Source of the DNA: an uncultured virus (IMG/VR IMGVR_UViG_3300000233_000006)
Lineage: Duplodnaviria > Heunggongvirae > Uroviricota > Caudoviricetes
DNA length: 64,000 nt
Direction: 5' to 3' (one strand)
IMG/VR virus record: IMGVR_UViG_3300000233_000006
Coordinates: 62,001-126,000 of that record
This document shows positions 1 through 40,200 of the stretch, one piece after another. The notes beneath the pieces are model-generated. The model did no database searches. It was given only the letters and a program-made list of their open reading frames with translations, and had not been told where the DNA came from. The position numbers and the translations under genes were made by a program. Numbering within the stretch: the first letter of the stretch is position 1; every line of letters begins with the position of its first letter.

Positions 1-216
1 TTGTTGCAACAAAAAAGCCTTGCCGCAAACTGCAAGGATGTTAATTTTAAAAGGCATCGATTTGTATTTAAGTATTCTTAGGAGTGCTTCGTTAAGAGAG
101 GGTAGCGTTATGTATTCTGGAAGTTTTATATTTCGATTAAAGACAAACTTTTTTTCAATCCCGTAGATAGTGGAAAGATAATCGTAGTAATCTACGAATT
201 TTGAAATGATTTTCAT
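1..216 (-). CDS. Hypothetical phage protein, 3' end runs off the window (MKIISKFVDYYDYL...)
   Basis: Read manually: ATG at 216, frame open to base 1; not in the ORF track. Confidence 0.7.
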   Translation of the reverse strand, partial: MKIISKFVDYYDYLSTIYGIEKKFVFNRNIKLPEYITLPSLNEALLRILKYKSMPFKINILAVCGKAFLLQQ

Positions 217-236
217 TGGGGTGGATCCATTTAAAA

Positions 237-268
237 TATCCTTTAGACGCTAGAGCGTCTAAAGGATA
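237..268. terminator. Inverted-repeat hairpin, probable terminator
   Basis: TATCCTTTAGACGC-taga-GCGTCTAAAGGATA just after the stop of 275..673. Confidence 0.7.
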
Positions 269-274
269 GTGTAA

Positions 275-673
275 TTAACTTAAAGTTAAGACGGGGTTGA
301 TGTAACCTGCCTTCATCAGAAGGCGCCGAATGATGATAAGGTCACTATCGGCTAAATCCGGTATCGTGATCGTCAATAAAGACGTCGTAATAAGTTCGAT
401 GGAATCGAGATTGATCCATTCTAACGCAAGTATAGTGCGTATACTTCCGGAGAGTTCGAACAAAACGTAAGTGTAGTTCTCAGGCCGATCTGGAACGCCG
501 TTGGCTAGAAGGTAAGGATAAACCGTACGGTGTTTAGATTCGACGTTATCGATAATCATTGCCGATCGGTAATCCATTATTGAAGAGACGCGTGCGCGAT
601 CAAGCGTTGCACCAAGAACAATAGGTGCCAACGTATCAAACTTATAGGTTTTTCCAATCTCAAAAGGAATCAT
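275..673 (-). CDS. Conserved jumbo-phage hypothetical protein
   Basis: 132-aa ORF in a tightly packed minus-strand operon. Confidence 0.75.
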   Translation of the reverse strand: MIPFEIGKTYKFDTLAPIVLGATLDRARVSSIMDYRSAMIIDNVESKHRTVYPYLLANGVPDRPENYTYVLFELSGSIRTILALEWINLDSIELITTSLLTITIPDLADSDLIIIRRLLMKAGYINPVLTLS

Positions 674-678
674 TTTTC

Positions 679-1071
679 TTACTCCGTATAAACGACAAAA
701 TGTACGTCTTGCCTTGTCACACGATTGATCGAAAGCATTTCAAAATCTAAATCGAAAATATTCGATTCTTTACAGCGTACCCATAAAAGAATCGCTAAGT
801 TATCTCGGATCCTACATATGAGTTGATATTTTACAGGATCAATAAGGACAGATGCAAAGACAGGAGGGATGGGGTGATTTCTTAAATAGTTAATGAAGTC
901 ATTGAAATTTCGATTCATGGAGTTCATAATAAACTCCATAAGTGCCGTTAAGGCATTCATGGCGTAAATAGAGTCTGACTGACCTTCGAAAAGTTCTATG
1001 GTCTCTTTCCTTAGTTCTATAAGGTCATCACCTAAATCAAAGATGACGTAGTAGTTTCTGTCATAGTCCAT
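679..1071 (-). CDS. Hypothetical protein
   Basis: 130-aa ORF, operon packing with 4-5 nt gaps. Confidence 0.75.
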   Translation of the reverse strand: MDYDRNYYVIFDLGDDLIELRKETIELFEGQSDSIYAMNALTALMEFIMNSMNRNFNDFINYLRNHPIPPVFASVLIDPVKYQLICRIRDNLAILLWVRCKESNIFDLDFEMLSINRVTRQDVHFVVYTE

Positions 1072-1075
1072 AATT

Positions 1076-1417
1076 TTAACCTGTAATTAAAAGACCGTTG
1101 CGATTTTGCCATCTAAAGAATCTAAAGTATTCGACGCTATAGTCGTAAATCATATCGACCTCATACCAAAAATTTTCAGAGACGTTCTGATAAAAAAGGT
1201 TGGCTTCTTCAAAGTTAACTCTTGTTTGCGAACTTAACGATTCAATAACGTCATTAATAATTTCTTCGTTATAAAATCCTGGTATGGCTGAGGACGGTAT
1301 TTCGTAACGTTCTATGAACGTTCGTATGGGAAGTACCTGGATGACAGGTTTGATGTTGTAGGGTATTTTAAACCCTAGTGTTTTTGGTATTTCGATATAA
1401 ATAAGTCTAGATAGCAT
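1076..1417 (-). CDS. Hypothetical protein
   Basis: 113-aa ORF overlapping the upstream stop. Confidence 0.75.
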   Translation of the reverse strand: MLSRLIYIEIPKTLGFKIPYNIKPVIQVLPIRTFIERYEIPSSAIPGFYNEEIINDVIESLSSQTRVNFEEANLFYQNVSENFWYEVDMIYDYSVEYFRFFRWQNRNGLLITG

Positions 1418-1784
1418 CGTCTCGTCCTTCGATAAATAAAACGCAACAAACGTTCTTAAATTCTAGAAGTTTTAGATTAAAGACATTAACTTGAGTGACC
1501 TCAAGTATTTCATCTAGAGCGCTTTCAATCGATTCGACGTACATCAAAAGGTTTACTTTAAACTCAAGATTTCCGTCGAAGTAAAGATCGATCTCTTGTT
1601 CGTAAATATCGAAAACGAACTGGGCTGCCGAACCATAGGTTGATCTAGGGATGGTAAGTAATTCACGGATGACTTCTTCAACAGGAGGAAGTAATTCGCG
1701 GTCATTTTCGAACACTTCAATTATTGAAGATAGGTCGCAGATAAAGATTTTCTTTTTTTCTTCTACGAATTCATTCGCCGTCAT
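1407..1784 (-). CDS. Hypothetical protein
   Basis: 125-aa acidic ORF immediately downstream of the IscB element. Confidence 0.75.
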   Translation of the reverse strand: MTANEFVEEKKKIFICDLSSIIEVFENDRELLPPVEEVIRELLTIPRSTYGSAAQFVFDIYEQEIDLYFDGNLEFKVNLLMYVESIESALDEILEVTQVNVFNLKLLEFKNVCCVLFIEGRDDAI

Positions 1785-1805
1785 AGGAGTGGATCCATGG
1801 ATGGG

Positions 1806-1870
1806 TCACGACCCCGAAGGCATGAGTCATCGCAGACATGTCTGCGGGACTTCCTTCGGAACGATCGTGA
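1806..1870 (-). other. Right-end stem-loop of the IscB element
   Basis: Nested pairs TCACGA/TCGTGA, CCGAAGG/CCTTCGG, AGTC/GACT around palindrome CGCAGACATGTCTGCG (1831-1846). Confidence 0.7.
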
Positions 1871-3202
1871 TCAGTGAGTGTAACGGTAACCGTCTGTTCT
1901 TGAACAGACGGTGATCGGAGAGGATGACGGGATGTCGATCGACATCCCACCGTATGTCACGCGTAGAGACCTTGTCGTATGTACGAGTGAAGTCACGCGT
2001 GACGTGTCCGTGACACCTTGACGACGACCTGACATCAAGGTGTAAGTGACGATGTCACCGGTACGGACACCGCGAAGGGTGGATGAACCCTTCGGACGTG
2101 TTGAGGGGAAGCCGTAACTGTCGGTGCGCACCATGCGTCTCGACACGTGACCGACGGCATGGGCGTTAAGGGGCTTAAGGGTTGGGTCGATAGGGCAAGA
2201 GGGTGGCGTGTCGACACAGGCGGCATCAACCCAGTGCTCCTTAGGAGCACGTAACGACGTTCGGTTCATGTGTGTCACCCAGGAGGGTGTACGCACTATC
2301 GGAACGAACGTCGAGAGCGATTTAAACAACGCGTTGTTGGACGAGTTGACAGCGGCGGCATCGCGTAGCGTGCGACGCTGTGCACGCACCTTGGGTGCAT
2401 ACTGACGGATCGCGGTATGGTGTGCGTTGGAAGTCGTGAGCGACGCGATCCAAGCCTCTATCGATAAATTCGATTTAGACTGGTTGCATGTGTAACATGC
2501 AAGCGTGGCATTATCGAGGCTGTCGGAGCCGTGGCGCGAGCGAGGGACGATATGATCCCAGGTGAGACGTTTATCGCCGCTCGCACCATGACAGTATTGA
2601 CAGGTGTAGTTATGTGCCATGCGTAGGTAACTACGCATCTCCATCCCGAAGGTGTCTGAGGTGCCTGGAGTGACGTGGCGTGTTTCTGGATGTTTAAGTC
2701 TTTGGAGGTCGAACTGAACATGTTCAGTGAAGACCATATTGAGTGGGGTGAAGCGCTGAAGTCGCTTCACCCACGTCACGATGTGATCCACCCTCGACTG
2801 CACCGATGGTGGGAGCCAACCGTCACGACGAGTGCGATTAAGGAAGCGACGAGCGCGATAGCGCGTGTGACGCGCGCGACGGTTGCTACGATAGCTACGT
2901 CGCTGAAGGAGTGCTTTTTGAATCGCGTTACCTCGATGATGGAGATGAAGCGCGTAGATGACTCGCGACCCGTTCTTGCCGTGGATAACCAGGGCAAGTC
3001 CGGTCGTCTTGGAGCCAGGATCGAGTTTAACATCTAGCGGCTGAATACCGCCACCGACTCGATCTTTCAAGACGATCGTGAACGGTGTGCGACGTAAGAC
3101 CGCAGCACGTTGCTTGGTAAGCAACTCACGTGCACGCCCTGGCGTGCACGGCATGAGTGGTTGACGCTTCGCATCAACCACGAAGACGTAGTTCTGAGAC
3201 AT
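1871..3202 (-). CDS. iscB: RNA-guided endonuclease IscB (PLMP, split RuvC, bridge helix, HNH)
   Basis: PLMP motif; RuvC-I LDPGSKTTG; Arg-rich RRSYRSNRRAR helix; RuvC-II TEHVQFD; HNH CQYC..DHIVPRS..N..LACYTCNQSK; RuvC-III HWVDAACV. Confidence 0.95.
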   Translation of the reverse strand: MSQNYVFVVDAKRQPLMPCTPGRARELLTKQRAAVLRRTPFTIVLKDRVGGGIQPLDVKLDPGSKTTGLALVIHGKNGSRVIYALHLHHRGNAIQKALLQRRSYRSNRRARHTRYRARRFLNRTRRDGWLPPSVQSRVDHIVTWVKRLQRFTPLNMVFTEHVQFDLQRLKHPETRHVTPGTSDTFGMEMRSYLRMAHNYTCQYCHGASGDKRLTWDHIVPRSRHGSDSLDNATLACYTCNQSKSNLSIEAWIASLTTSNAHHTAIRQYAPKVRAQRRTLRDAAAVNSSNNALFKSLSTFVPIVRTPSWVTHMNRTSLRAPKEHWVDAACVDTPPSCPIDPTLKPLNAHAVGHVSRRMVRTDSYGFPSTRPKGSSTLRGVRTGDIVTYTLMSGRRQGVTDTSRVTSLVHTTRSLRVTYGGMSIDIPSSSPITVCSRTDGYRYTH

Positions 3203-3209
3203 AAAGAGG

Positions 3210-3511
3210 TTCCTATAAAAACACTGTGAGTTACCTCACACACTTGCGTGTAAAGTGGTCCTCGACAAGGTTCAGCAGGCTTGTCGTGTGTGTCACACCG
3301 AGACGTTGAGCTCATCTCTTTTAATGACACACGACAGAGCGGAAGACTGGATCAGACATCCTCCGGTGTCATGACCTGCTGAACGTAGTGCATTTGCGTG
3401 CACTGAGTCTGGTCATCAAGGATCCGTAAGGATCCATCTATCAGTCAGGGTCAGGGAAGACCCTGACTGATAGATCACTCACTGACGACTGCTTTCCTCT
3501 TAAAAGTATTC
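3210..3511 (-). ncRNA. omegaRNA (HEARO-like) with 5' guide at about 3490-3511
   Basis: Minus strand carries hallmark blocks TGACCAGACTCAG, CTACGTT, GACACC..GGATG..CCAGT..CTCTGTC, CAAGCC..AAC..TTGTCGAGG..CTTTAC; first stem GTCGTCAG (3482-3489) pairs with TTGATGAC (3412-3419); ends approximate. Confidence 0.85.
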
Positions 3512-4134
3512 ATCCAATCGACGATTCGATAATCTTCGCCTTTTTCAATGACGATCGAAAGCCCTGCTTTTTGGGTTTTTACAAAGTAAAGGTTCCAAAC
3601 ATCGTTATCGATAAAATTATCGATCTCGTCAAAAAAGTCTTCAGCAAGTTCAATAATCACTGACGTATCAAACTCTGACGCCAGGGGATGGTTTGGGTTA
3701 AGCGCAACGCTTAACGAGGTCGGTGATTTACGAAGACTTACTTCAGGGAATTTGGACTCGATGTAATTTTTAATCACATTAAAGACGATGTCGATCCAAA
3801 CGACATGGGATTCTGGGAGGTTTTTGATCATACCTTTCTTTAGCTTTTTAAAGGGTGTTAGATCATAAACAAGCTCCATGTATTTATTGTAAATCATTCC
3901 AACTTCAAGAACGTCTTTAAAGTCTTTGGGGTAAAGACGGTAAAATACCCCTTCTTTGGATATTGCGTAAAGCTCGTCACTGTATAAAAAGAGTGGTTTG
4001 TTTTTATACAATATGTAAAATCCCCGGTACGCTTCTATTGCAATTAAACCGTTGAACCTAATATCGAGACGATTAATAAGCGTTTCTAATGACAAGACAC
4101 ACTTAGATAATACTTTACTTGTATAATTGGACAT
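3475..4134 (-). CDS. Hypothetical protein; last four codons (VVSE*) probably supplied by the IscB element
   Basis: 219-aa ORF; inferred element boundary falls exactly on a codon boundary (3489/3490). Confidence 0.8.
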   Translation of the reverse strand: MSNYTSKVLSKCVLSLETLINRLDIRFNGLIAIEAYRGFYILYKNKPLFLYSDELYAISKEGVFYRLYPKDFKDVLEVGMIYNKYMELVYDLTPFKKLKKGMIKNLPESHVVWIDIVFNVIKNYIESKFPEVSLRKSPTSLSVALNPNHPLASEFDTSVIIELAEDFFDEIDNFIDNDVWNLYFVKTQKAGLSIVIEKGEDYRIVDWMNTFKRKAVVSE

Positions 4135-4145
4135 GACATTTGAAC

Positions 4146-4436
4146 TCAGATAAAAGTTGAAAGAACGATGGCCATTGATGGACTTACGGTAGCCTGTAGA
4201 AAGATATGTCGTCCGGTTGTATTAAAGCTCTTGATGTTGTTGTTAGAAAGTGTAGCTTTAAAACGGTTAAATAGACTGGGGTAGTTTCTTTCGATGCTTG
4301 TGTAATAACAAATATCTTCAGGAATAACGTCTCGACCGACGACGGTTGTATCAAACGAGGTAACGTCGGATAAAAACCGGTTAAAAATAATTGTCATAAG
4401 TTCGATGGAACGTGCGGTAATGTCGACGACTTTCAC
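4146..4436 (-). CDS. Hypothetical protein
   Basis: 96-aa ORF in operon; start uncertain. Confidence 0.55.
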   Translation of the reverse strand: MKVVDITARSIELMTIIFNRFLSDVTSFDTTVVGRDVIPEDICYYTSIERNYPSLFNRFKATLSNNNIKSFNTTGRHIFLQATVSPSMAIVLSTFI

Positions 4437-4614
4437 GTATATTTTCCATAGAAAAACTACGAGGATAGGCCGATCCGATATACCAACCTAGATTACCGTG
4501 GTCACGTAGACGACCTTCTTCAGACACATTGATCGCATCGATACATGCGGTATACAAGTCATCGAAAAAAGATACGTCGGATATTACTGTGATCGTATAA
4601 CGATTATAATCCAT
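4381..4614 (-). CDS. Hypothetical protein
   Basis: 77-aa ORF with GAGG RBS; overlaps the next ORF by 56 nt. Confidence 0.55.
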   Translation of the reverse strand: MDYNRYTITVISDVSFFDDLYTACIDAINVSEEGRLRDHGNLGWYIGSAYPRSFSMENIRESRRHYRTFHRTYDNYF

Positions 4615-4667
4615 ACAAGCCTCGTTTTATATGTCTAAAAGATCAGTCTGAGTTTTTAAAAAAATAC

Positions 4668-4701
4668 ATGCTACAGCGAGCTGAGAGGCTCGCTGTAGCA
4701 T
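4668..4701. terminator. Hairpin terminator after phuZ
   Basis: ATGCTACAGCGAG-8 nt-CTCGCTGTAGCAT, with a T-run downstream on the minus strand. Confidence 0.75.
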
Positions 4702-4706
4702 TTTAA

Positions 4707-5693
4707 TTAAAGGATGATACCTAGACTGTCAGATGAACTTACGGCGTCTTTAGACGCCAGTGATTTGGGTGTACGAAGCGAAGACTCTTCACCATACTTC
4801 GCTTCGAGACCTGATAAACGACCTAGGTCGATTTGAAGACGTCCGTCCACCGTGATGGCGTGGATCTGATCGTACGCCGTCATGTTTTCTGCGACAAAGT
4901 TATTCATATAACCGACCGCATGATAGTCAACCATACACCCTAGAGTGCAGTCTTCTTTAGCGATCGAGAGAGCCGAATAAACTTTTTCAGAACCTTCGAG
5001 AACCACGGTTTCTTCATAGACCTCGATCATCACCGCCTTAGGTTGATGCGGTGTAACCACGGTATAGTCCATGAAGTTCAGAAGGTCAGAACTGTCAAGT
5101 TCCTGGTGCACACCAGAAAAGAATAAAGACATCACGCTAATGAACGATATCGCGGAAGCGTCAGTCATTGAGCGTGTTTGGCTTGAACTGTTTTCAAGGT
5201 AATGTATGAGAACAGGCTTCGAATACATTTGGGCCATGACATCGTAGCCGGTAATGACTTTGATGGTGTTATTCACTTCGATACGACTTGACGTCGAACC
5301 GATCAAGAGAACCATGACGGGCAAGCCGCGCTTAATAAGTTCGGAAGCGATTACAGGACCGATTACCGACCCTGAACCACCGGATGCCGAATGCACGACG
5401 ATATTTAAAACCTGGCTAGGTTTAAAGTCCGTCAATACATCACCGTGCTCGCCAACGATCGCTTCGTAGTTCATACTACGCAAGCCACCCGAACCGTCGC
5501 GACCTTTAAAGATATAGATCGACGATAGGTCGATACGATCCAAATGTTTTAGATTGGACATCGACGTGTCTAGAAAGGCGATGTCGTACTCGGACATACC
5601 GTCTGTATGTTTTTCGAATAGACCTAGGTTCTTGCCTAAGATGTTGACGCCTGCGCCGCCACATGCGTAAATGCGAATTTGATTTGTGCTCAT
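4707..5693 (-). CDS. phuZ: Phage tubulin PhuZ
   Basis: IYACGGAGVNI, GSGG and tubulin signature SGGSGSVIG; 328 aa; hydrophobic C-terminal tail (GIIL). Confidence 0.93.
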   Translation of the reverse strand: MSTNQIRIYACGGAGVNILGKNLGLFEKHTDGMSEYDIAFLDTSMSNLKHLDRIDLSSIYIFKGRDGSGGLRSMNYEAIVGEHGDVLTDFKPSQVLNIVVHSASGGSGSVIGPVIASELIKRGLPVMVLLIGSTSSRIEVNNTIKVITGYDVMAQMYSKPVLIHYLENSSSQTRSMTDASAISFISVMSLFFSGVHQELDSSDLLNFMDYTVVTPHQPKAVMIEVYEETVVLEGSEKVYSALSIAKEDCTLGCMVDYHAVGYMNNFVAENMTAYDQIHAITVDGRLQIDLGRLSGLEAKYGEESSLRTPKSLASKDAVSSSDSLGIIL

Positions 5694-5694
5694 T

Positions 5695-6258
5695 TTAAAG
5701 ATCCTTAATTTCGATAAAAGTGACTTTATCCATCACTATGAGGTATGATTCGCCTTTGTTTTGGGGGATAAGCAAAAACTCGTCTCTTAATTTATCATGA
5801 AAATTAAAATTTTCGACGATAAGCTTCAACACATCCTCGTTGACAAAGTGGATGATCATTTCCTTTTCACCGCTTTCTTCAGTGACCGGAACACTTTTTT
5901 TACATTCGTTTTCCGTGCGAAAGGTTTTTTCCCCACGACTTAGGAAATTAAAGATGGTGACGATATGATTTTGCTTTAGTCTAGAGACTTCAAGTAACTT
6001 TTCCTCTAAATCCGTATGGTACATAGGCACTTCACTAATGCTATCGATCATGTCTACGACGTCATCACCCTCTTTAATATCATTAAAGTGATCGGGGATA
6101 AACTGTCTTAGGAATACGTTAAGCATATTTTTTAGCACAGCTTCGACTTCGCATTCTACGTATTTAAAGTAATTGTTAAAATCACTTGAAACGAAGCAAA
6201 CGAAACGTCCTGAAGTAAGACGTACTGAAAAAATAGAACGGTGGTTTTTTTCGATCAT
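5695..6258 (-). CDS. Hypothetical protein co-transcribed with phuZ
   Basis: 187-aa ORF, GAGG RBS, downstream of an early promoter. Confidence 0.75.
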   Translation of the reverse strand: MIEKNHRSIFSVRLTSGRFVCFVSSDFNNYFKYVECEVEAVLKNMLNVFLRQFIPDHFNDIKEGDDVVDMIDSISEVPMYHTDLEEKLLEVSRLKQNHIVTIFNFLSRGEKTFRTENECKKSVPVTEESGEKEMIIHFVNEDVLKLIVENFNFHDKLRDEFLLIPQNKGESYLIVMDKVTFIEIKDL

Positions 6259-6304
6259 GACACGAACCTCTTTTTAAACGTTAACGGAAATGTTAACCAC
6301 ACAA

Positions 6305-6312
6305 GTAATATA
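6305..6312 (-). promoter_or_regulatory. phiKZ-type early promoter TATATTAC
   Basis: Exact motif upstream of the phuZ operon; 16-nt identity (AAGTAATATAGCTTTG) with the copy at 7529-7544. Confidence 0.75.
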
Positions 6313-6327
6313 GCTTTGTAATAATTT

Positions 6328-6375
6328 ACATGTCATAGAGACTGAGGGCGCTAACCCTCAGTCTCTATGACATGT
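6328..6375. terminator. 21-bp perfect stem-loop downstream of the tRNA
   Basis: ACATGTCATAGAGACTGAGGG-cgctaa-CCCTCAGTCTCTATGACATGT. Confidence 0.7.
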
Positions 6376-6383
6376 TATTTGAA

Positions 6384-6459
6384 TGGTGGGTCTGCCGAGA
6401 TTCGAACTCGGAACCCAAGGATTATGAGTCCTCTGCACTAACCGTTGTGCTACAGACCC
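6384..6459 (-). tRNA. tRNA with CAU anticodon, most likely Ile2 (lysidine type) or elongator Met
   Basis: GGGTCTGTAGCACAACGGTTAGTGCAGAGGACTCATAATCCTTGGGTTCCGAGTTCGAATCTCGGCAGACCCACCA; cloverleaf, TTCGA loop, encoded CCA; G1:C72 argues against initiator. Confidence 0.93.
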
Positions 6460-6468
6460 TGTATTTTT

Positions 6469-6768
6469 TTACCAGTTATTACCAAGGTGATTACCGAGGG
6501 TATCCATCAGAAGTTTGGGTACAGCACAAATCAGTGTTTTACCTGAACCTACAAAGGTTACACGACTTCCTTCAGTAAAGTTAGTTTCAAACTCCATTGA
6601 AAAATTTACGTTATCCACAGTAATAACGATGTCCTTATCGTCCTTAATCGTAAGGGAAAACGGACCACCGTTCTCACCCTTTTTCATTTTGAATGAAACG
6701 ATCTTACCTTCACCATCTGCACCAAAACCTGTGTAAATGATTTTACCCAGATAAGAATTACTTGACAT
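6469..6768 (-). CDS. Hypothetical protein
   Basis: 99-aa ORF, AGGTGA RBS. Confidence 0.75.
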   Translation of the reverse strand: MSSNSYLGKIIYTGFGADGEGKIVSFKMKKGENGGPFSLTIKDDKDIVITVDNVNFSMEFETNFTEGSRVTFVGSGKTLICAVPKLLMDTLGNHLGNNW

Positions 6769-6789
6769 GACAGATCACCTAAAAGATTT

Positions 6790-6818
6790 AAAAAAAAAAA
6801 AGCGTACGTTAAGTACGC
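6790..6818 (-). terminator. Intrinsic terminator
   Basis: GCGTAC-ttaac-GTACGC followed by about 12 T on the minus strand. Confidence 0.6.
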
Positions 6819-6820
6819 AA

Positions 6821-6988
6821 ACAGTACACGAGGGACTCGTCGGCTTATAACCTTATTATCGCCAAACCCAAGACACTTCATACGGGTGAGTAAATAGAGG
6901 CAAAAACCCCACCGTATACGAAGAGCCAAACCTAAGTTTACGGCCTGAAAAGTTATTATTTATTACCGACGAGTCTCTCGTGTACTGT
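6821..6988 (-). ncRNA. Candidate structured non-coding RNA of unknown class
   Basis: 23-bp closing inverted repeat with 1 mismatch, inner stem and a 12-nt internal direct repeat; strand inferred from context. Confidence 0.5.
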
Positions 6989-7001
6989 ACTAGCATACGA
7001 T

Positions 7002-7499
7002 TTAAGCGCTATCAACCTTTTCTTTAAAATCCCTAATGAAAAGTTTTACTTTTCTTACTAGGTGCTCAACATCGCTTCTTGCACTTTCTGACTGAGACGC
7101 AATATGCGACTTACGAATACTCGGAACAGAACTACCTTTAAGCCGATTGGCGGCTTCAGCGATGTTGTTCAAGTACGAGATAGCGTTAATGTAATCATCA
7201 ACGATCGAGTGTGCCATACTCACAAGACGGCCGCCTGATGCTTCGGAAAGAACCGAGGAAGGTAAACTTGTTAAAGATTTGAAAATTTCAACCTCACGTT
7301 GAAGTTCAAAAAGATCAAAAGGTTTAGCTTCGGTAGGCGTCGATACCACAGGATATGTTTCAACATAGTTATTTTTTACAACAACTGGAGATTTCTCACG
7401 AGGGACCGAAGAATCGAGAACGATCTCACTAACCCTAATCTCAATTTTTGGAATGATAATAGCCCGTTTTTTCTTTAGGACTATGTTTTCAAAAGCCAT
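7002..7499 (-). CDS. Hypothetical early protein
   Basis: 165-aa ORF, GGAG RBS, directly behind a TATATTAC promoter. Confidence 0.8.
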   Translation of the reverse strand: MAFENIVLKKKRAIIIPKIEIRVSEIVLDSSVPREKSPVVVKNNYVETYPVVSTPTEAKPFDLFELQREVEIFKSLTSLPSSVLSEASGGRLVSMAHSIVDDYINAISYLNNIAEAANRLKGSSVPSIRKSHIASQSESARSDVEHLVRKVKLFIRDFKEKVDSA

Positions 7500-7530
7500 T
7501 TTTGTGCTCCACGAAAGTTAGTTCATGAAA

Positions 7531-7538
7531 GTAATATA
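7531..7538 (-). promoter_or_regulatory. phiKZ-type early promoter TATATTAC
   Basis: Exact motif about 30 nt upstream of the 7499 ATG. Confidence 0.75.
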
Positions 7539-7604
7539 GCTTTGATTTTTCTTAGATTCAGGTCAAACGATAAGGGATGTTTCTTTATTTTTTTAAGTGA
7601 AAAG

Positions 7605-8090
7605 TCTCGCGTGTGTCCGCGCGTATATCAAGGATCGCACGCATGCGTCCGCAGGTGTGTGTGCGTGTGTCCGCAGGTGTGTGCGCGCGCACCGGCCTGC
7701 GCCCCCGCGCTCCCGTGCGCGCCTGTGCGCGCTCACGCGCTCCCGTGCGCGCCCCCGCGCCCGTTTAAAGCTACACATGTACACGTGCGTATATTATATA
7801 AAATATTATATATTTTATATATAAATATACACATGCGTATATGTATATATTAAATAAAAATATATAATATTTTTATAAAACGTGCGCCCGGGAGCCTAGG
7901 CGCCTGTACGCGTGTTACGCGTAAGCTAAGGAGAAGAAAATGAAGATTTATTTTGAAAATAAAGATTTTCAAAAATCAAAACTCCATGAAACTAAAAAAA
8001 ATCAAAGATTTTTTAGAAAAAGTTAAAAAAAAGCAAGTGTTAATTAACGCGCGCGGGCGGGCGGGCGCCTGATACGCGCGGTCTAGTGAA
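7605..8090. repeat. Low-complexity non-coding region of GC repeats flanking an AT-rich core (origin-like)
   Basis: Direct repeats CGCGCTCCCGTGCGCGCC (7706, 7736) and GTCCGCAGGTGTGTG (7647, 7669); nearly pure A/T tract about 7790-7880. Confidence 0.6.
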
Positions 8091-8505
8091 ACTAAAAAAT
8101 ATATCTTTTCAGTGGTTTGTTCTGAACGAGCCTTAACTTTTATCTTGAAATATAGTTTAAACGAACGGAGAAGATTTCTAAGAGGTTTAAAAGTCAAAGT
8201 AATATGAGGACAAGGGGTAGGCTTTTTAAATCGTTCAAAGAGGCTCTCAGAGCCTAGTTCAATAAATTCAAAACCAAAAACGATTTTCTTGGTTTCTCGT
8301 GACCTCGGAAATAACGCGAATTTAAACCGCCGTATTTTTTTAATCCGCAAAAGCTTATTCTGTGAACGCCAATAGCAACTGAAACCAACCTCTTGTTATT
8401 TTTTTAACTTTCCCGTTTCCTAATCCGGCGTGGGGGTCGGAATGGGAATTAGGTTTGTTTTTTTTAAGCCACTGACATTTTATGAAATATTTGAGAGGTT
8501 TGATT

Positions 8506-18298: not shown

Positions 18299-20389
18299 AT
18301 GATTCAGGAAATTGTTAATGGCGCACCTATGATCATCAATTACGGTATTGATGACAAAAGTAAACGCTCCATCCCATACCAAAGTCCATCCATCTCACAG
18401 CACCTGCCTAAATATTTCATTTACGCGCAAAAAGGTCCTGAAGAATCGACTTTAGTATCTCCAAATGATCTCATACGTTTGTATGGCGAAGACACGTTTG
18501 ACCCGAACAAAAAGTTCTTTAATCACTCGACAATTTTTCTTCGCGACACATGCGGCGCGCCAGGACTTGCGTCGAGTGCAATCGTTAAGCGCATCATTCC
18601 TTCGGATGCGGGTCCCAACGCTTCTATTATTCTCTATATCGACATTCTCGAAACAGACGTCGACCTTTACGAGCGTACCGCTGAAGGTCTGATTAAGTAC
18701 GATAGCTTGGGATCACCGCACGTTATCGGAACAACTCCAGGCTCTAAAATTAAGTGGACGTCAGACTATCACAGAAGTCTTAGTTCCGTGAATACACCAG
18801 GCGAACTGACTTCCGGACTTGGAACTCAAACCGATTCGACTGGACGCACCTCAGTACGTTATCCGATCTTCGAATTCAAGGTACGTGACCGTGGTGCAGA
18901 CGGTAATAATGGCGGTGTTCGTCTTTGGTCACCCACGTATTTGACTGAAGTCAATATGCATGACGAATTGCTGAATACCACGCGCGCTTATCCGTACTAC
19001 GTTTCCTTGGTGAACCGTAAAGACGAAAAGTCGCCAGTAAAAGAAGTTCGTACGCGTCGTTACGATACGCGCGCACTCTTTACGTTTGCCCCAGGCGCAA
19101 TCAATCCTCGTACGCAATCAAACACGTACATGAAAGACGTTCTTAATGACGAATACAACGATCCTCAATACGGTCTTACATCAAATTTTGATGACGTCTT
19201 TATTTACCAAGAATACCTCGAAACAGTTCTTGCAAAAATGCATGTGACTGAAAAGGCCTTCATCGACATCTATAGTGACATTTCTGTTGATGAAAGCGAT
19301 TTGTTCTTGATGAATATTATCGGATTGACCACCTCACGAGGAACGCCTTATCACAGTGTTCAGTTCTCCGACGATTTTGACGCAGTCATCATGTCGCGTT
19401 ACGGCAATATCTTTGCCAATGGTGGTGTTGACGGAACGATGAACGACAGTCTTTTTGCTCAGTCTGTCGAACATTTGATGGAAGAATACGCAGATCCCGA
19501 CGCAGAGATTCAAGACTTCGTTCTTTATCCCGAAACCGTCATTTACGACACCGGCTTTCCTTTGTCAACAAAACGCGCACTGGCTAAATTTATCGCCGTT
19601 CGTAAAAATACAGCGGTTGCGTTATCAACATATGTTGCTAAACAACCTAAAACGCTTGCCTCGGATGACTTCTCAATCGGCAGTGCGCTCAAAACATACG
19701 TGGACTTCTATCCAGAAAGCGACTACTTTGGCACACCTACGGTGCGTGGTATTATCGTACCTGGAAGTTCTTTGCTTCTCAATAGTAAATACCGTGAACG
19801 CGTCCCTACGCTTTACGAAGTCGCTATGAAAAGCGCAAGATACATGGGTGCTGCAACGGGATCATGGCGTACTGAAGAAGCATTTGACGAAGCTCCAGGT
19901 AACGTACTCGCGTTTACTTACGACCATTCTCAAACATGGCTACCTGCATCCGCACGTAACAACTACTGGGCGCAAGGCATTAACTGGATCCAGGCTTACG
20001 ACTACCGTCGTTTCCAATTCCCAGCGCTTAAGACCGTATACGGTGCAACATCAACGGACGATACCTCGGTACTCAATAGCTGGTTTACCGTTATCGCAGC
20101 CTCAGCTCTAACAACCATCGGTGCTGCGGCTTATCGCGAAATCGTAGGTACAAGCAGTAAGAGCCCCGCTAAAATCTCTGACAAGATGACTGCATTTATT
20201 AACGGCAAGACGCGCGGTGCGTTTGATAACCGTTTTGTCATCATCCCAGAAGTTACGTTTGATGAACTCGATTTACTTCGAGGTTATAGCTGGCATTTGG
20301 TTTTCAAAATGTATGCGGAAAATATGCGCACCGTTATGACAACGTGGGTCGAGACGTACCGTATCTCCGACCTTGAAGAACTTAACTAA
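18299..20389 (+). CDS. Tail sheath protein (phiKZ gp29-like)
   Basis: 696 aa; NGAP..I.D.S start, QHLP..F...KGP, YG..TFD, IYDTGF motifs; followed by the tube gene. Confidence 0.88.
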   Translation: MIQEIVNGAPMIINYGIDDKSKRSIPYQSPSISQHLPKYFIYAQKGPEESTLVSPNDLIRLYGEDTFDPNKKFFNHSTIFLRDTCGAPGLASSAIVKRIIPSDAGPNASIILYIDILETDVDLYERTAEGLIKYDSLGSPHVIGTTPGSKIKWTSDYHRSLSSVNTPGELTSGLGTQTDSTGRTSVRYPIFEFKVRDRGADGNNGGVRLWSPTYLTEVNMHDELLNTTRAYPYYVSLVNRKDEKSPVKEVRTRRYDTRALFTFAPGAINPRTQSNTYMKDVLNDEYNDPQYGLTSNFDDVFIYQEYLETVLAKMHVTEKAFIDIYSDISVDESDLFLMNIIGLTTSRGTPYHSVQFSDDFDAVIMSRYGNIFANGGVDGTMNDSLFAQSVEHLMEEYADPDAEIQDFVLYPETVIYDTGFPLSTKRALAKFIAVRKNTAVALSTYVAKQPKTLASDDFSIGSALKTYVDFYPESDYFGTPTVRGIIVPGSSLLLNSKYRERVPTLYEVAMKSARYMGAATGSWRTEEAFDEAPGNVLAFTYDHSQTWLPASARNNYWAQGINWIQAYDYRRFQFPALKTVYGATSTDDTSVLNSWFTVIAASALTTIGAAAYREIVGTSSKSPAKISDKMTAFINGKTRGAFDNRFVIIPEVTFDELDLLRGYSWHLVFKMYAENMRTVMTTWVETYRISDLEELN

Positions 20390-26657: not shown

Positions 26658-28076
26658 TTAGTTACGTTCAATCCGTACTTGTGACATTAGGAAGTTAACG
26701 ATGTACTTTGAATAAGCAATCATTGATACTTCACGAATGTCAAGTTTAGGTTGTTCTTTAGCGATTTCATTCATCCATCTGAGGATAAGTGAGGCGTCTG
26801 TATAGTAGAAGCGAACTTCAGTCATGATGCGAGAACAGACGTCGTAGACGTTCATAAGGTCTTCACGCTTCAAATTAAGAAGAGCTTCTTTAAACAGTTT
26901 ACTAACGACATCGTCATAACTCGTATCTTTAGACCGGACGTCGTGTTCGGCATCGCTTTTGCTAAGAAGAAGGCGAATAAATTCGATTTCCATCGAAGTT
27001 TTAAAGGCACTAAACTTTTCGTTTTTTTCGTGCGCTTCTGTAACACTCGAGAAGGTACGCCATGAGGACTCCAGATCGTTACGATGCGTAACAAATTCTT
27101 TCTGAGAGAAATAGTTCTTATTCGTTACAACGCTCGCCATCACGTGAGTCGGTGAACCACCAGTCTTCAAAAAGTCACGATAGACAGGACCGATGACATA
27201 AACGACGGTTTTTACATAAGCTTTATCAGCAAACGTTCGGTTACTGATAAGAACATTTGAATGACAGGACGCGTCAAAGTTTTTCTTGAGTCGAACAAGT
27301 GTCGACCCGGCATAGTCGCGCATTTGACGAAGGAATGACTTAACTTTGGCCGCACTAACGCTGCCTTTAGCATAACCAACGAGCGCTTCTGGATTTCGTG
27401 ATAAGAAGAAAATGATCGAAAGGATGTTTGAGCGTTCGATGTAGGTTGTTTTGAGAGGATCTAATTGATTTGTCAGATTATCATTTCGATTCATACTTCC
27501 GATAAAGAAATTCTTGAAAACTTTAGAAACAAGTAAACCTTGGTCGGTTTCAGTATCCGCAATTTCAAAAAGTTCACGATCCATCTCATTAAAAAGTCCT
27601 GAAGCCAGGATCTTTTTAAGGTCTTCAGGACTCACGTCGTCAAAAGAAACATCCAAGAATTGTGATTCAGGAAGTGAAGGCAGGTGACCGTCGTATGATT
27701 CGAGGATGTCCGTGAATTCAAGACTGTTGATAAATTCAGGCATGTCTTCTTCGATAATCGTAATCATCGCGTTTTCATTTCTTACTGGTGTCTTTTGCAT
27801 GGTGACCATAACGGCCTCAGCATACTCTTTAACCAAAGGAATGATTTCTGACCGAGTCATAGTCATGTGGCGCTTAATGTGTTTCGACAGGTCCTGAACA
27901 AAAGGTTCAAGCAACGCATCGTACTCAGGTGTCAACTTATCGTATTCAAAACACGTTAAGGCACTTGGAACGAGATGCCCTACAATCGTTTCAGGCAAAG
28001 CTTCGAAATTAATTTTACCTGAACCACCCATCCGATCGTAAATCGCACGTGTCGTTTTTTCAATTACGTTAATCAT
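26658..28076 (-). CDS. Conserved virion protein (phiKZ gp177-like)
   Basis: 472 aa; synteny just downstream of vRNAP beta. Confidence 0.65.
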   Translation of the reverse strand: MINVIEKTTRAIYDRMGGSGKINFEALPETIVGHLVPSALTCFEYDKLTPEYDALLEPFVQDLSKHIKRHMTMTRSEIIPLVKEYAEAVMVTMQKTPVRNENAMITIIEEDMPEFINSLEFTDILESYDGHLPSLPESQFLDVSFDDVSPEDLKKILASGLFNEMDRELFEIADTETDQGLLVSKVFKNFFIGSMNRNDNLTNQLDPLKTTYIERSNILSIIFFLSRNPEALVGYAKGSVSAAKVKSFLRQMRDYAGSTLVRLKKNFDASCHSNVLISNRTFADKAYVKTVVYVIGPVYRDFLKTGGSPTHVMASVVTNKNYFSQKEFVTHRNDLESSWRTFSSVTEAHEKNEKFSAFKTSMEIEFIRLLLSKSDAEHDVRSKDTSYDDVVSKLFKEALLNLKREDLMNVYDVCSRIMTEVRFYYTDASLILRWMNEIAKEQPKLDIREVSMIAYSKYIVNFLMSQVRIERN

Positions 28077-37200: not shown

Positions 37201-40200
37201 AATCGTTGACCAGACTGTACCCCCAAGTCCACCGCCACCAATAACCCCGACAACACCTACTCCGTCAATAACCCCGACAACACCTACTCCAGGTTCTGGA
37301 TTTGCTGAGGGCAGTAATTCTGTCACTCCACTTATAAATGGGTTTAACCACGTCAAAAACAAGGTATCGAACCTCTTTACGCGCCCCACACAAAATAACA
37401 TGGTTCAGCAAGACTTAGCTTCAGCACCTAATACTGCCGGTAAAACGCTGTCTGGTACAGCCAATAAAATATTGGCTGGTGTAGCGACTTATGGAGGTTT
37501 GTCTTTATTTGGGGCTGGAGCAGCTAACGCAGGTTCTTTAGGGACTTTAGCTTTTGAGCCAACAACTGGACTTCCATTACTCATAGCCCTAGGCCTGGCA
37601 GGCGCAGGCTATAAAATTTACAAGAATAAGAAAAAACAACGAGACATCGAAAAGGCAGCACTTCAAACACAACCAGGAGTTTCGGACGTACCGGCAAATG
37701 CCGAAGGTACGTTACAGAATATGTCTGGAAATACCGTGACAGGAAGTGTTGTTAACGCCGCAGGAACTGTTATTGACGGCGCATCAAAATTGTCGCAGAA
37801 TGTTGCGAGAGGTATCAAGGATAAATTTAAAACCGTCGTTGGTGCATCTAAAGGTGCTTTAAATGAGGCTAGTAAACGACGCGATGATATCAAGTCTAAA
37901 ATTAGTGAGTTCTCGGATAACAACACACTTCACGGTATCGATTTTGCTGCCGATCGTTTAATAAGTCAGGTTGCAGGAAGCATCAGTGAAAAAGCGCGTT
38001 CACGCGTTAAAGCGGCCCTGGTCAAAACGTATAAAAGCGCACAATCTAAAGGCGGCGATAAACTTGCGTTAGCCGCAATCAGTGCCGTTATATTGAGAAC
38101 GTCTTTTACCACCGCAGGACTTCGTGAAGTTACTGAATGGACGGAGGACGGTCGTCCTATTAAGTCACGCGTTAAAGATACTGTCAAGAATATTGCAGGT
38201 AATGTCAGGACGCGTTATCGGAATAGCGAGACTGTCGAACAGGCGCGTGAAGGTATTAAAAACGTTATTGAAAATAACGATAGAAGTATTATCCAGCGCG
38301 GCTTTCGTTTATTTAACCGAGGTCGCGAAAGCGACTTTATAAAAACACTGACTAATAAAAATGTCAACGTAAGTGAAAAAGCTTCAAGTATTCTTCAGCT
38401 TGTTAAGAATATTGAAATGACGGAACTGTTAAAGAAACTTATCCCTAAAAAGAAAAAGTTTAATGACAGAAATAACGACGGTCATCGAGATAATGCGTGG
38501 GACGCTAGTACGGGTACGGCCGCATCTGTCGGTCTAAAAGGTGTTGCTGCACGAGCAGCTACCGCCATACTTTCTCGCCCACTCATTGCTGCGGCAGCAG
38601 GACTTGCCGTAGCAGGCGTTGTTTCATGGTTATCTAATTTAAAATCTGGTGAATTTAAAGATGTAGTAGGTGAAACTTGGCATGGCGCTAAGAAACTTGC
38701 TAAAGGCGCCGTAAAAGGCGCCGGAAATTTAGCCGTAACAACAGGTGAAGTTTTTGAACAATGGGGTTTAACCCTAGGTCGAGGCATAAGAGATGTTGGC
38801 GGATGGGCGCTTGATAAGTCCTTAGATTCGCTACCTCTAATCGGCCATGTTTACAAGTACCAGAAAAATAAAGCAATGGAAGCTTTTAATGAAGGACGTT
38901 TTCTTCAATACGGTATTCGGATCAATGACCTCTCTAGCGTTCAACGTATCCTCGAACTTGAAGCCTACATTATCGACGAACGTGTCGTCGACACAACTAA
39001 CGGTAAAGTTCAAAAAGATCGAATTGATCAGGAAAAGTTGTTTAAGATATTTGATATCGATAAAGACGACGTCAAAGGTCAAAGACGTTTTATACGCTGG
39101 TTTACCGGACGTTTCATAAAGGTCTTTAGATACCATGCGGTTGCACTCAGAACCATCAAAAAGGAATTTAGTGACTTTACATTACTTAAGTCCTTAAACA
39201 AAAAAGAAAAACTTGAATACTTTAATCGAGTCAAGTCGATAAGTGGTATCCTTAATGTTTTTGAACTTCCATTTAACACCGATGAAAAAAATGATGTTAC
39301 TGAAGAAGAGATCGATGCATGGTACCGTCAGGCGATTGACAAAGTTAAAAGTCAAAAAGACGATCCTGAAAAAAAGAAAAAAGACGGTACGTCAACAAAT
39401 AAACCTGAAGATAAAGTAGGTAAAGAAAAAGACGACTATATCAAAGGTCAAAATCGTAAAAAGGTACTTGATGATCTTGAAGCTAAACGCGCGTCGGTCG
39501 AAGCGACGCGAAGAATAAAGGCGGAAGATCAGAAGGTATCTAAAGAGAACGCGTCACGTCGCCAGGCCGAATTTAACAAGGCGGCTTCTGATATTTCTTC
39601 AGGGAATGTTCCGTCACCTCAAGCACCGTCTAGCGTTGCTTCAATGACAGGTAACACACTCCTTGCCTTACCTAACACCACCGTTCCAGCCTTAGACAAA
39701 AATCCGAACGGTTATGAAAAAGCCCTTGAAGAGTTTGCGATTAAGAACGGTATTCAAAAAGGACCTGAGCTTGCGGCTTTTATGGCCAACGCTTCTGTTG
39801 AAACAGGTCAATTTAAACATCTTACTGAAAAAGGTAAGAACGCAGGTTCACAATACGAAGGTCGCAAGGTCTTAGGTAACACTGAACCTGGCGATGGAGA
39901 GAAGTTTAAAGGTCGCGGGTTCATGCAACTTACCGGACGTTATAATTACGGCGTTATCGGGAATGCGCTCGGTGTAGATTTAGTCAATAATCCAGACCTT
40001 GTATCAGAACCTGAAATGGCTATGAAAACTGCCGTCGCCTATTGGAAACTACATAATGGCGGAAAGATTCCTGAAGCAGCGCGTTCGGGAGACTTCAAGA
40101 AGTCTGTCTATTATGTCAATGGCGGTTACAACGCGTTTAATGAACGCCAGGGCCAGTACGACAAATATCTTCAGATGTATAATTCTGGAAATACTGTCGC

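Follow-up and report, generated by a model that had tools for sequence, protein, structure and literature searches.

How does an ancestor of Cas9 come to be carried on a viral genome of a kind closed to Cas9 itself, and can it act there? Nucleus-forming phages keep DNA-cutting defences, Cas9 included, off their genomes, and the question is raised by a locus in a stretch of 64,000 nucleotides, hereafter the window, which comprises bases 62,001–126,000 of a linear IMG/VR record of 127,910 bp (IMGVR_UViG_3300000233_000006, 48% complete according to CheckV; G000:C1, or C1 below, denotes record coordinates). From the letters alone, an original prediction had placed an intact IscB nuclease and its omegaRNA at window positions 1799–3511. 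The element was found there, with its coordinates corrected to 1785–3489 and its guide flank at 3490–3505. It is a foreign and discrete element of 1705 bp in the genome of a jumbo phage encoding the nuclear shell protein chimallin and the tubulin PhuZ. A Cas9 ancestor is thus carried in a genome of the shielded kind, and the population data show its gain, loss or movement there.

The element in the virus population

To begin with, a total of 15 runs in a public-run index presented all or part of the window segment 1200–4100, and the contigs of four of them were compared with window positions 1–6000. All the sampled 31-letter words of 1200–4100, both junctions included, were found in the Logan contigs of runs X1, X2 and X3, which come from two samples. 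In particular, run X3 presented positions 1–6000, with the filled allele, within a single contig of 6931 nt at a depth of 511.6x. These three runs may include the source sample (X3 may be that sample) and are therefore not fully independent of the record. In runs X4, X6 and X7, from three samples, contigs of a phage about 99% identical joined position 1784 to position 3490, with the seven letters CTTCATT in between. This empty allele reached depths of 137.5x, 110.3x and 4.6x (X4, X6 and X7, respectively), and fragments of the insert appeared in the same runs at only 0.2–4.7x. The insert is polymorphic in nature, being present at this site (site 1) in two samples and absent there in three others. 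Moreover, all the differences to the right of the insert were listed (24 in X4 and 23 in X6); none of them falls within 3490–3604, and the 16-nt target of the putative guide is therefore intact in the empty alleles of both runs.

Both ends of the element (1785 and 3489) are sharply defined and no target-site duplication was found, but with seven extra bases in the empty allele the insertion is not scarless. The right end was given by three independent lines, namely the empty-site joint, which falls exactly on the first base of the P1 helix of the omegaRNA, the P1 helix of the minimum free energy (MFE) fold, and the comparison of two diverged IscB copies in another IMG/VR record (G002), which turn similar exactly at position 1 of the Rfam HEARO model and are preceded by unrelated sequence. 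A GTCA start at HEARO position 1 was also found in six other loci. Two further boundaries were considered, one at 3461, where cmscan starts the omegaRNA, and one at the foot of a 17-bp hairpin (3474/3475). Both were rejected, since the joint in the empty alleles, P1 as placed by the MFE fold and the GUC with which the six other loci begin concur on 3489. The 5′ end given by cmscan is displaced inwards by 28 nt owing to the enlargement of P2 to that perfect 17-bp hairpin. On the minus strand, the order of the parts is right end, omegaRNA scaffold, iscB and left end (LE). Hairpins were found at about 1806–1871, past the stop codon of iscB, where a hairpin had been predicted, and a direct repeat (D4) places 1791–1808 and 3430–3447 (14 of 18 positions identical) near both ends. 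A 10-nt inverted repeat (1871–1880 and 3476–3485) was set aside as likely chance, about 1.5 such pairs being expected per 1.8 kb by a rough estimate.

The element also stands out by composition. Its G+C content was 54.8%, compared to 41.4% in the rest of the contig, which is about five standard deviations above the mean (standard deviation of 2.6% for windows of 1705 bp). In the same direction, the G+C content at third codon positions (GC3) was 0.59 in iscB vs. 0.37–0.51 in the neighbouring genes.

Furthermore, one contig of 223 nt from run X4 (depth 2.77) presented positions 1782–1967 preceded by 37 other letters. The 30 of those 37 letters available for comparison match C1:1236–1265 with one mismatch, and the reference continues there with CAT (1266–1268). 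Because of this match, the left end of the element is placed at a second site, 62.5 kb away, in X4. The same element base and the same CAT were found at both joints (GTCAT/AGGAG at site 1 and AACAT/AGGAG at site 2), an exact-end hit that would not be expected from a random chimera. Site 2 lies inside an open reading frame (ORF) of 130 aa with an adjacent paralogue, and at both sites the element is co-oriented with the interrupted minus-strand gene or transcription unit. The site-2 copy differed from the reference copy at site 1 at 5 of 186 positions, and thus the two copies are no fresh duplicates. At its right end, site 2 is predicted to join the element end ...GACGAC to CGTCATCG. As for the paralogous pair itself, the two adjacent ORFs (C1:1135–1527 and 1524–1937, minus strand) encode 130 and 137 aa, both starting with MKQITL and both without a family match, the first of them being the site-2 target.

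The nuclease, its RNA and the phage that carries them

The iscB ORF encodes 443 aa (window 1871–3202, minus strand). The profile search proposed with the original prediction returned, in Pfam, RRXRR (PF14239; E 1e-61, residues 6–175) and HNH (PF01844; E 4.3e-12, residues 201–245). The PLMP, RuvC, bridge-helix and HNH features read from the letters were all located: QPLMPC (14–19), KLDPGS with D61, an Arg-rich stretch (bridge helix) at residues 100–127, FTEH with E160, an HNH core of C201/C204/H217/N231/C236/C239/N240/K243, and HWVDAA with H323 and D326. In an alignment of the window IscB with 27 homologues, its 12 catalytic or zinc-binding residues (D61, E160, the eight HNH core residues just listed, H323 and D326) were all invariant (28/28); the HNH, with catalytic His/Asn and the four Cys of a zinc site, lies between the parts of a split RuvC. 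From IscB structure papers, we take E160 to be the RuvC-II Glu and H323/D326 to be the RuvC-III His/Asp. By sequence, the solved IscB chains matched were TbaIscB (2e-26) and OgeuIscB (4e-19). An AlphaFold model built from the 28-sequence alignment had a predicted local distance difference test (pLDDT) of 83.5 and a predicted template modelling score (pTM) of 0.76, and its 10 top PDB matches in Foldseek were IscB/IsrB–omegaRNA–DNA complexes (E 1.8e-24 to 2.4e-16, TMq 0.45–0.56), with 8csz_D as the best (E 1.8e-24). Identity to the best 120 homologues was only 41–51%, the nearest protein (51%) appearing on short metagenomic contigs. By every tested feature, then, the window protein is a member of the IscB family, with RNA-guided, TAM-dependent cutting of double-stranded DNA as its putative activity.

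Directly upstream of iscB and on the same strand, where an omegaRNA region had been proposed, the covariance-model search recommended in the original prediction found HEARO (RF02033) over its full model at 3461–3250 (minus strand), with 109.2 bits vs. a gathering score of 83 (E 1.7e-22). In the MFE fold, P1 consists of GUCGUCAG (3489–3482) paired with UUGAUGAC (8 bp) and encloses two hairpins, as the P1 of HEARO does; the minus-strand fold had a z of −7.3. A terminator-like hairpin with a U run closes the omegaRNA at 3240–3225. No promoter-like site was found between the right end of the element and the omegaRNA scaffold, which suggests read-through transcription from the upstream phage gene and, in consequence, an omegaRNA whose guide is made up of some 16 nt of the adjoining phage sequence, UUUUAAGAGGAAAGCA. 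An IscB guide is about 16 nt long. With up to two mismatches allowed, this putative guide matched the 127.9-kb record once only, and the expected target-adjacent motif (TAM) on the minus strand should begin with ATG.

The gene content of the phage was determined in a PHROG scan of 130 of its 133 ORFs (greedy calls), of which 72 lie outside or straddle the window start and 58 lie inside; the others were one 61-aa ORF in a GC-rich tract and the last two, off or beyond the window end. Chimallin was found at C1:39963–41798 (phrog_4795, 1.4e-77), and PhuZ lies close to the insert (Table 1). Moreover, at least seven beta/beta′-type pieces of split RNA polymerases were found, and further matches in the record included tail sheath, terminase, protease, a UvsX-like recombinase and SbcC/SbcD-like nucleases. 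From chimallin, PhuZ and the split RNA polymerases, the host phage is assigned by sequence to the chimalliviruses, in agreement with the nucleus-forming jumbo phage originally proposed. Its chimallin is only 29–31% identical to the annotated nuclear shell proteins of Burkholderia and Ralstonia jumbo phages, which makes it a divergent, uncultured chimallivirus. Among the deposited phages, no match was found to window positions 1–8000 (megablast) or to the insert (blastn), and single-protein pattern scans of IMG/VR (flank ORF, IscB and PhuZ) found no close relative. Exact patterns of the omegaRNA hairpin and of the right flank had no match in metagenome or viral contigs, collections from which the own record may be absent.

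Regarding mobility, Y1 TnpA (PF01797) was not found in the whole 127,910-bp record (48% complete), and so the lack of tnpA pointed out for the window extends to the entire record. We infer a non-autonomous IscB element of the IS200/IS605 family. The coordinates of its parts and of the neighbouring genes are collected in Table 1. The last four codons and the stop of the upstream phage ORF (3475–3489) come from the element.

Table 1. Features of the IscB element and its surroundings (window positions).
Feature	Position	Strand	Basis or remark
Whole IscB-omegaRNA element, 1705 bp	1785–3489	−	Precisely this segment is missing from the empty-allele contigs (X4, X6 and X7)
Left-end (LE) region, nested hairpins after the iscB stop	1785–1870	−	Candidate TnpA-binding end
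omegaRNA scaffold	3215–3489	−	P1, two enclosed hairpins, HEARO core, then terminator-like hairpin and U run
Perfect 17-bp hairpin, read as the enlarged P2 of the omegaRNA	3436–3475	−	Inverted repeat I1, 100% complementary; paired in the MFE fold
Putative guide-encoding phage flank, about 16 nt, 5′-UUUUAAGAGGAAAGCA-3′	3490–3505	−	Directly 5′ of P1; 3′ end of the upstream phage ORF
CAT directly 5′ of LE, common to both insertion sites	1782–1784	+	Reads ATG on the minus strand, where the TAM is expected to begin and the downstream phage ORF starts
Upstream phage ORF, 219 aa, without family match, co-oriented with the element	3475–4134	−	ORF call, PHROG scan
Downstream phage ORF, 125 aa, without family match	1407–1784	−	ORF call, PHROG scan
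PhuZ (tubulin) of the host phage, at a distance of 1.2 kb from the insert	4707–5693	−	phrog_4733, 5.6e-69

Other features of the phage record were observed as well. Three group I introns (Rfam Intron_gpI, gathering score 50) were found at about C1:23,936–24,261, 26,881–27,266 and 38,222–38,528, with 94.4, 89.7 and 109.1 bits, respectively (4936–5261, 7881–8266 and 19222–19528 in the coordinates of locus L003), all of them outside the window. Two of these introns interrupt RNA polymerase beta-type genes, the PHROG matches of which carry on beyond the gaps, and the third is found a short way upstream of a further RNA polymerase piece. With lengths of about 300–400 nt, all three are too short to hold a homing endonuclease gene. 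Inside the window, a tRNA gene was found at 6387–6459 (minus strand; Rfam tRNA, 71.6 bits), with CAU at the anticodon position, and would thus be of the Met or Ile type. Finally, an intergenic GC-rich tract of low complexity and about 190 bp (GTGTGCGCGC-type, 7593–7784) is directly followed by about 85 bp of nearly pure A+T (7785–7870), and only spurious matches to microRNA models were obtained in the two tracts (7593–7870).

IscB in other phages

The window IscB matched PHROG 2214 (4.9e-98), and relatives covering at least 80% of it appeared in 15 deposited phage records. IscB relatives were also encoded in 165 out of 189 candidate IMG/VR stretches. Among the deposited phage records, those matching chimallin (116) and those matching IscB (46) overlapped only in Bacillus phage AgentSmith, which presents chimallin (7.3e-68), tubulin, an RRXRR protein without HNH (IsrB-like) and a weak HEARO match (41.6 bits).

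A total of 18 IscB-bearing IMG/VR contigs of at least 100 kb, picked from the loci of two scans, formed a survey set, and five of them had chimallin or PhuZ. In particular, chimallin was encoded by G002, G003, G006 and G017, and PhuZ was found in G002, G006, G007 and G017 (nine records tested); G017 is a record of 244,725 bp with terminal repeats and is rated 100% complete. Y1 TnpA (PF01797) was found in none of G002, G006, G007, G008 and G017, and two RRXRR genes each were present in G002 and G006. HEARO matches of 100–139 bits accompanied all six distinct IscB copies of chimallin/PhuZ phages, bar that of locus L033, in which the upstream region is cut by the contig start. Moreover, the G+C content of the gene equalled that of its flanks in these records (0.43/0.43, 0.49/0.49 and 0.52/0.49–0.53). 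Judging from these sequences, IscB and omegaRNA recur in at least four other chimallin/PhuZ phage lineages of IMG/VR.

In G002, the two IscB-omegaRNA copies (loci L017 and L097; positions 89,684–95,700 of its contig C1) lie 3.3 kb apart on a phage fragment, with the chimallin gene some 7 kb away. Starting at HEARO position 1, the two copies share about 80% identity over the first 900 bp, and the guide region of one is unrelated to that of the other.

In a FastTree phylogeny of 196 IscBs, built without an outgroup, with L064 on a very long branch and with local support values only, the six rows from chimallin/PhuZ phages fell within one well-supported set of 58 rows, with 4 label changes; 4 out of 80 locus ORFs (<350 aa) had been dropped ahead of the tree. 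These IscBs thus appear to be related without forming a single clade, and the tree gives no single origin. Two further IscBs close to them in the tree (P0061 and P0125) are encoded on contigs as long as chimallivirus genomes (222,358 and 244,243 bp). The chimallins themselves, four of which were aligned (A2, 19–30% identity), were judged too divergent to seed a scan. In the deposited record LR756508.1 (L010), a weak group I intron match was observed at 1933–2504 (40.6 bits vs. a gathering score of 50), in the midst of tRNA genes and directly upstream of its IscB-omegaRNA.

How the element may be kept, and how it compares with known systems

The reading preferred here, with a probability of roughly 0.6, is that of a non-autonomous IS200/IS605-type IscB element whose ribonucleoprotein (RNP) homes on phage DNA, with TnpA supplied in trans. 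Transcribed by read-through from the upstream phage gene, the omegaRNA would carry the flank of about 16 nt (UUUUAAGAGGAAAGCA) as guide. IscB would be made in the cytoplasm and would meet the omegaRNA after protein import into the phage nucleus, or else would be imported as RNP. Phage genomes in which the target abuts an ATG-type TAM, i.e. a site after excision or a scarless empty allele, would then be cut, with HNH cutting one strand and RuvC the other, and the recombination genes of the phage (UvsX-like and SbcCD-like) would repair the break from a filled copy, by which the element would be kept or spread. Insertion at new CAT sites would need a Y1 TnpA in trans, encoded by the host or in the half of the phage genome that lies beyond the sequence. 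That such homing would take place within the phage nucleus is plausible. A scarless joint would read GTCAT/TGCTTTCC and would fuse both flanking ORFs in frame (judged by eye). The observed CTTCATT allele has two separate, overlapping ORFs, with a Shine-Dalgarno-like GAGGA seven bases before the downstream ATG.

Several observations weigh against homing of this kind. The empty allele found in nature is not scarless, since on the minus strand the target is followed by AATGAAG and not by the ATGACG expected from the insertion sites, and the guide target and the expected TAM are set apart by seven extra bases. Either the insertion was no clean TnpA event, or this allele is out of TAM register and would escape cutting. 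The natural empty allele is unlike the scarless joint that the guide/TAM logic calls for, which argues against simple homing. Moreover, the dominance of the empty allele in X4 and X6 (137.5x and 110.3x vs. 0.2–4.7x for the insert) is unlike an efficient drive. The second site was seen in one contig of low depth (2.77x), and its right-end junction was not found in the compared contigs of the four runs. The hairpins at the two ends of the element are unlike each other and form no clear matching pair of the IS200/IS605 kind, and the unameliorated G+C content would suit an element that arrived recently and has perhaps just had no time to decay. In addition, no RNA runs were listed among the public runs matching window positions 1200–4100, and the DNA of phages in the chimallivirus family is enclosed in a shell. 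As to the seven bases, it is possible that they were deleted by the insertion, that the insertion took place in a variant without them, or that the allele survives because its TAM is out of register. Where the insert is rare, the prevalence of the empty allele agrees equally with resistance of that allele and with a nuclease that is inactive.

The best surviving alternative, unlikely but deserving serious weight, is an inert passenger that entered by accident when a host TnpA acted on replicating or injected phage DNA, that is intact because it is recent, and whose IscB is excluded from the nucleus and has no effect. The compositional contrast described above (54.8% vs. 41.4% G+C, GC3 of 0.59 vs. 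0.37–0.51) agrees with it, as do the absence of the insert from the dominant population in three of the four runs compared, the lack of a transposase in the phage record and the lack of any sign that the common empty allele is being converted. However, the presence in at least four other chimallin/PhuZ lineages of an IscB that is intact, with an omegaRNA above threshold, is at odds with this reading, and the equal G+C content of gene and flanks in those lineages indicates long residence without decay. Two of those other records present two RRXRR copies, and the 5 of 186 differing positions of the site-2 copy point to an element that has persisted in this phage species for a while.

A bolder claim than homing, for which the odds are rather poor, is that of an IscB-omegaRNA lineage adapted to nucleus-forming phages, with a protein admitted by the import system, an omegaRNA transcribed in the nucleus and homing among co-infecting genomes without a transposase of its own; the seven-base allele dominant in three samples would then be a natural drive-resistant one, its TAM being shifted out of register with a target that is otherwise intact. 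It is improbable that the nuclease has been domesticated or weaponised, its RNP targeting host DNA or unrelated competitors, or regulating, and not cutting its own empty site. Such a use has a precedent in the nuclease gp210 of phage PhiPA3, taken up below, and the element sits within a co-oriented operon, but its guide is merely the adjacent flank, as in ordinary insertion sequences (IS), matches only that flank in the 127.9-kb record, and is absent with its element from most of the population, which leaves no room for a fixed phage function. Finally, a bacterial IS misjoined into the phage contig, which the original prediction had itself named as a danger and which the strong G+C contrast to the flanks would suit, can practically be set aside, as the junction-spanning 31-letter words of 1200–4100 are all present in the contigs of X1, X2 and X3 (two samples, the source sample possibly included), X3 holds positions 1–6000 in one 6931-nt contig at 511.6x, and the empty alleles break exactly at the structural ends of the element.

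Should the RNP be active within the shell, as homing would have it, the element would be a natural case of RNA-guided gene drive from one virus to another, and it would allow the import system to be probed for what it lets through. It would also offer a starting point for the editing of jumbo phages, in which engineering with DNA-targeting CRISPR is difficult. If the RNP is inactive there, the intact copies in at least five chimallin/PhuZ lineages need another explanation. Should the tentative nucleus-adapted lineage be true, natural RNA-programmable nucleases would be reaching a compartment closed to Cas9 and restriction enzymes. With filled, empty and second-site alleles known, the question can be put to the test on substrates of defined sequence.

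Compared with known systems, the window element resembles the IscB element of Geobacillus stearothermophilus and OgeuIscB (7xht, 8csz) in its domain order, catalytic residues and IscB-like fold. According to Meers et al. (bioRxiv 10.1101/2023.03.14.532601), iscB lies near tnpA in only about 1.5% of cases, the TAM of GstIscB is TTCAT, 5′ of the left end, and published IscB elements are co-oriented with the upstream gene, with an omegaRNA bounded by the right end. The window element agrees with the G. stearothermophilus element in having a HEARO-type omegaRNA upstream, bounded by the right end, a putative guide taken from the flank, no tnpA and a co-oriented position, and its insertions adjoin NNCAT, here at two sites of which one is on a single 2.77x contig. 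The missing Y1 TnpA is expected for a non-autonomous element, given that figure of about 1.5%. In contrast to IS200/IS605 IscB elements, it has its home in a lytic-type, shell-forming jumbo phage and not in a bacterial chromosome, its P2 is enlarged, it is 41–51% identical to its best 120 homologues, and its empty site is off the scarless joint by seven bases.

As reported (PMC11620839), PhiPA3 gp210 is an intron-encoded HNH homing endonuclease that is imported into its own phage nucleus and harms a co-infecting relative. Like gp210 as described there, the window IscB is a selfish nuclease gene in a chimallivirus that must act on DNA inside the phage nucleus, and it could penalise co-infecting relatives lacking the insert. 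Unlike gp210, for which import and activity were demonstrated, it is an RNA-guided and transposon-borne nuclease whose import and activity are putative. The IscB/IsrB proteins of deposited phages (PHROG 2214) include those of Nodularia phage kac68v162, Ralstonia phages Heva and Adzire, the uncultured phage LR756508 (484 kb) and AgentSmith. Deposited-phage relatives of the window IscB are full-length, 37–40% identical and annotated as 'HNH endonuclease', with a HEARO match of 144 bits in LR756508; presence/absence and second-site population evidence, unlike in those records, is at hand only for the window element.

The open-access texts searched, supplements excluded, held none that joins IscB with chimalli* or 'phage nucleus', and those with IscB and 'jumbo phage' together included none on this subject, as judged by titles, abstract starts and term counts. 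A 2026 review (PMC13565253) raises homing of obligate mobile element-guided activity (OMEGA) systems into phages, co-infecting ones included, as 'theoretically' possible. The original idea of an RNA-guided weapon against co-infecting relatives holds as a possibility but is less new than it was stated to be, given that review, the gp210 report (PMC11620839), the fact that IscB is common in viral contigs and its presence in several other chimallin/PhuZ phages. What is new is the setting in a nucleus-forming phage, the population evidence of gain, loss and movement, and the recurrence across chimallin/PhuZ lineages. The type of element is already known, and the window thus holds an element of an ordinary kind in an unusual and informative place.

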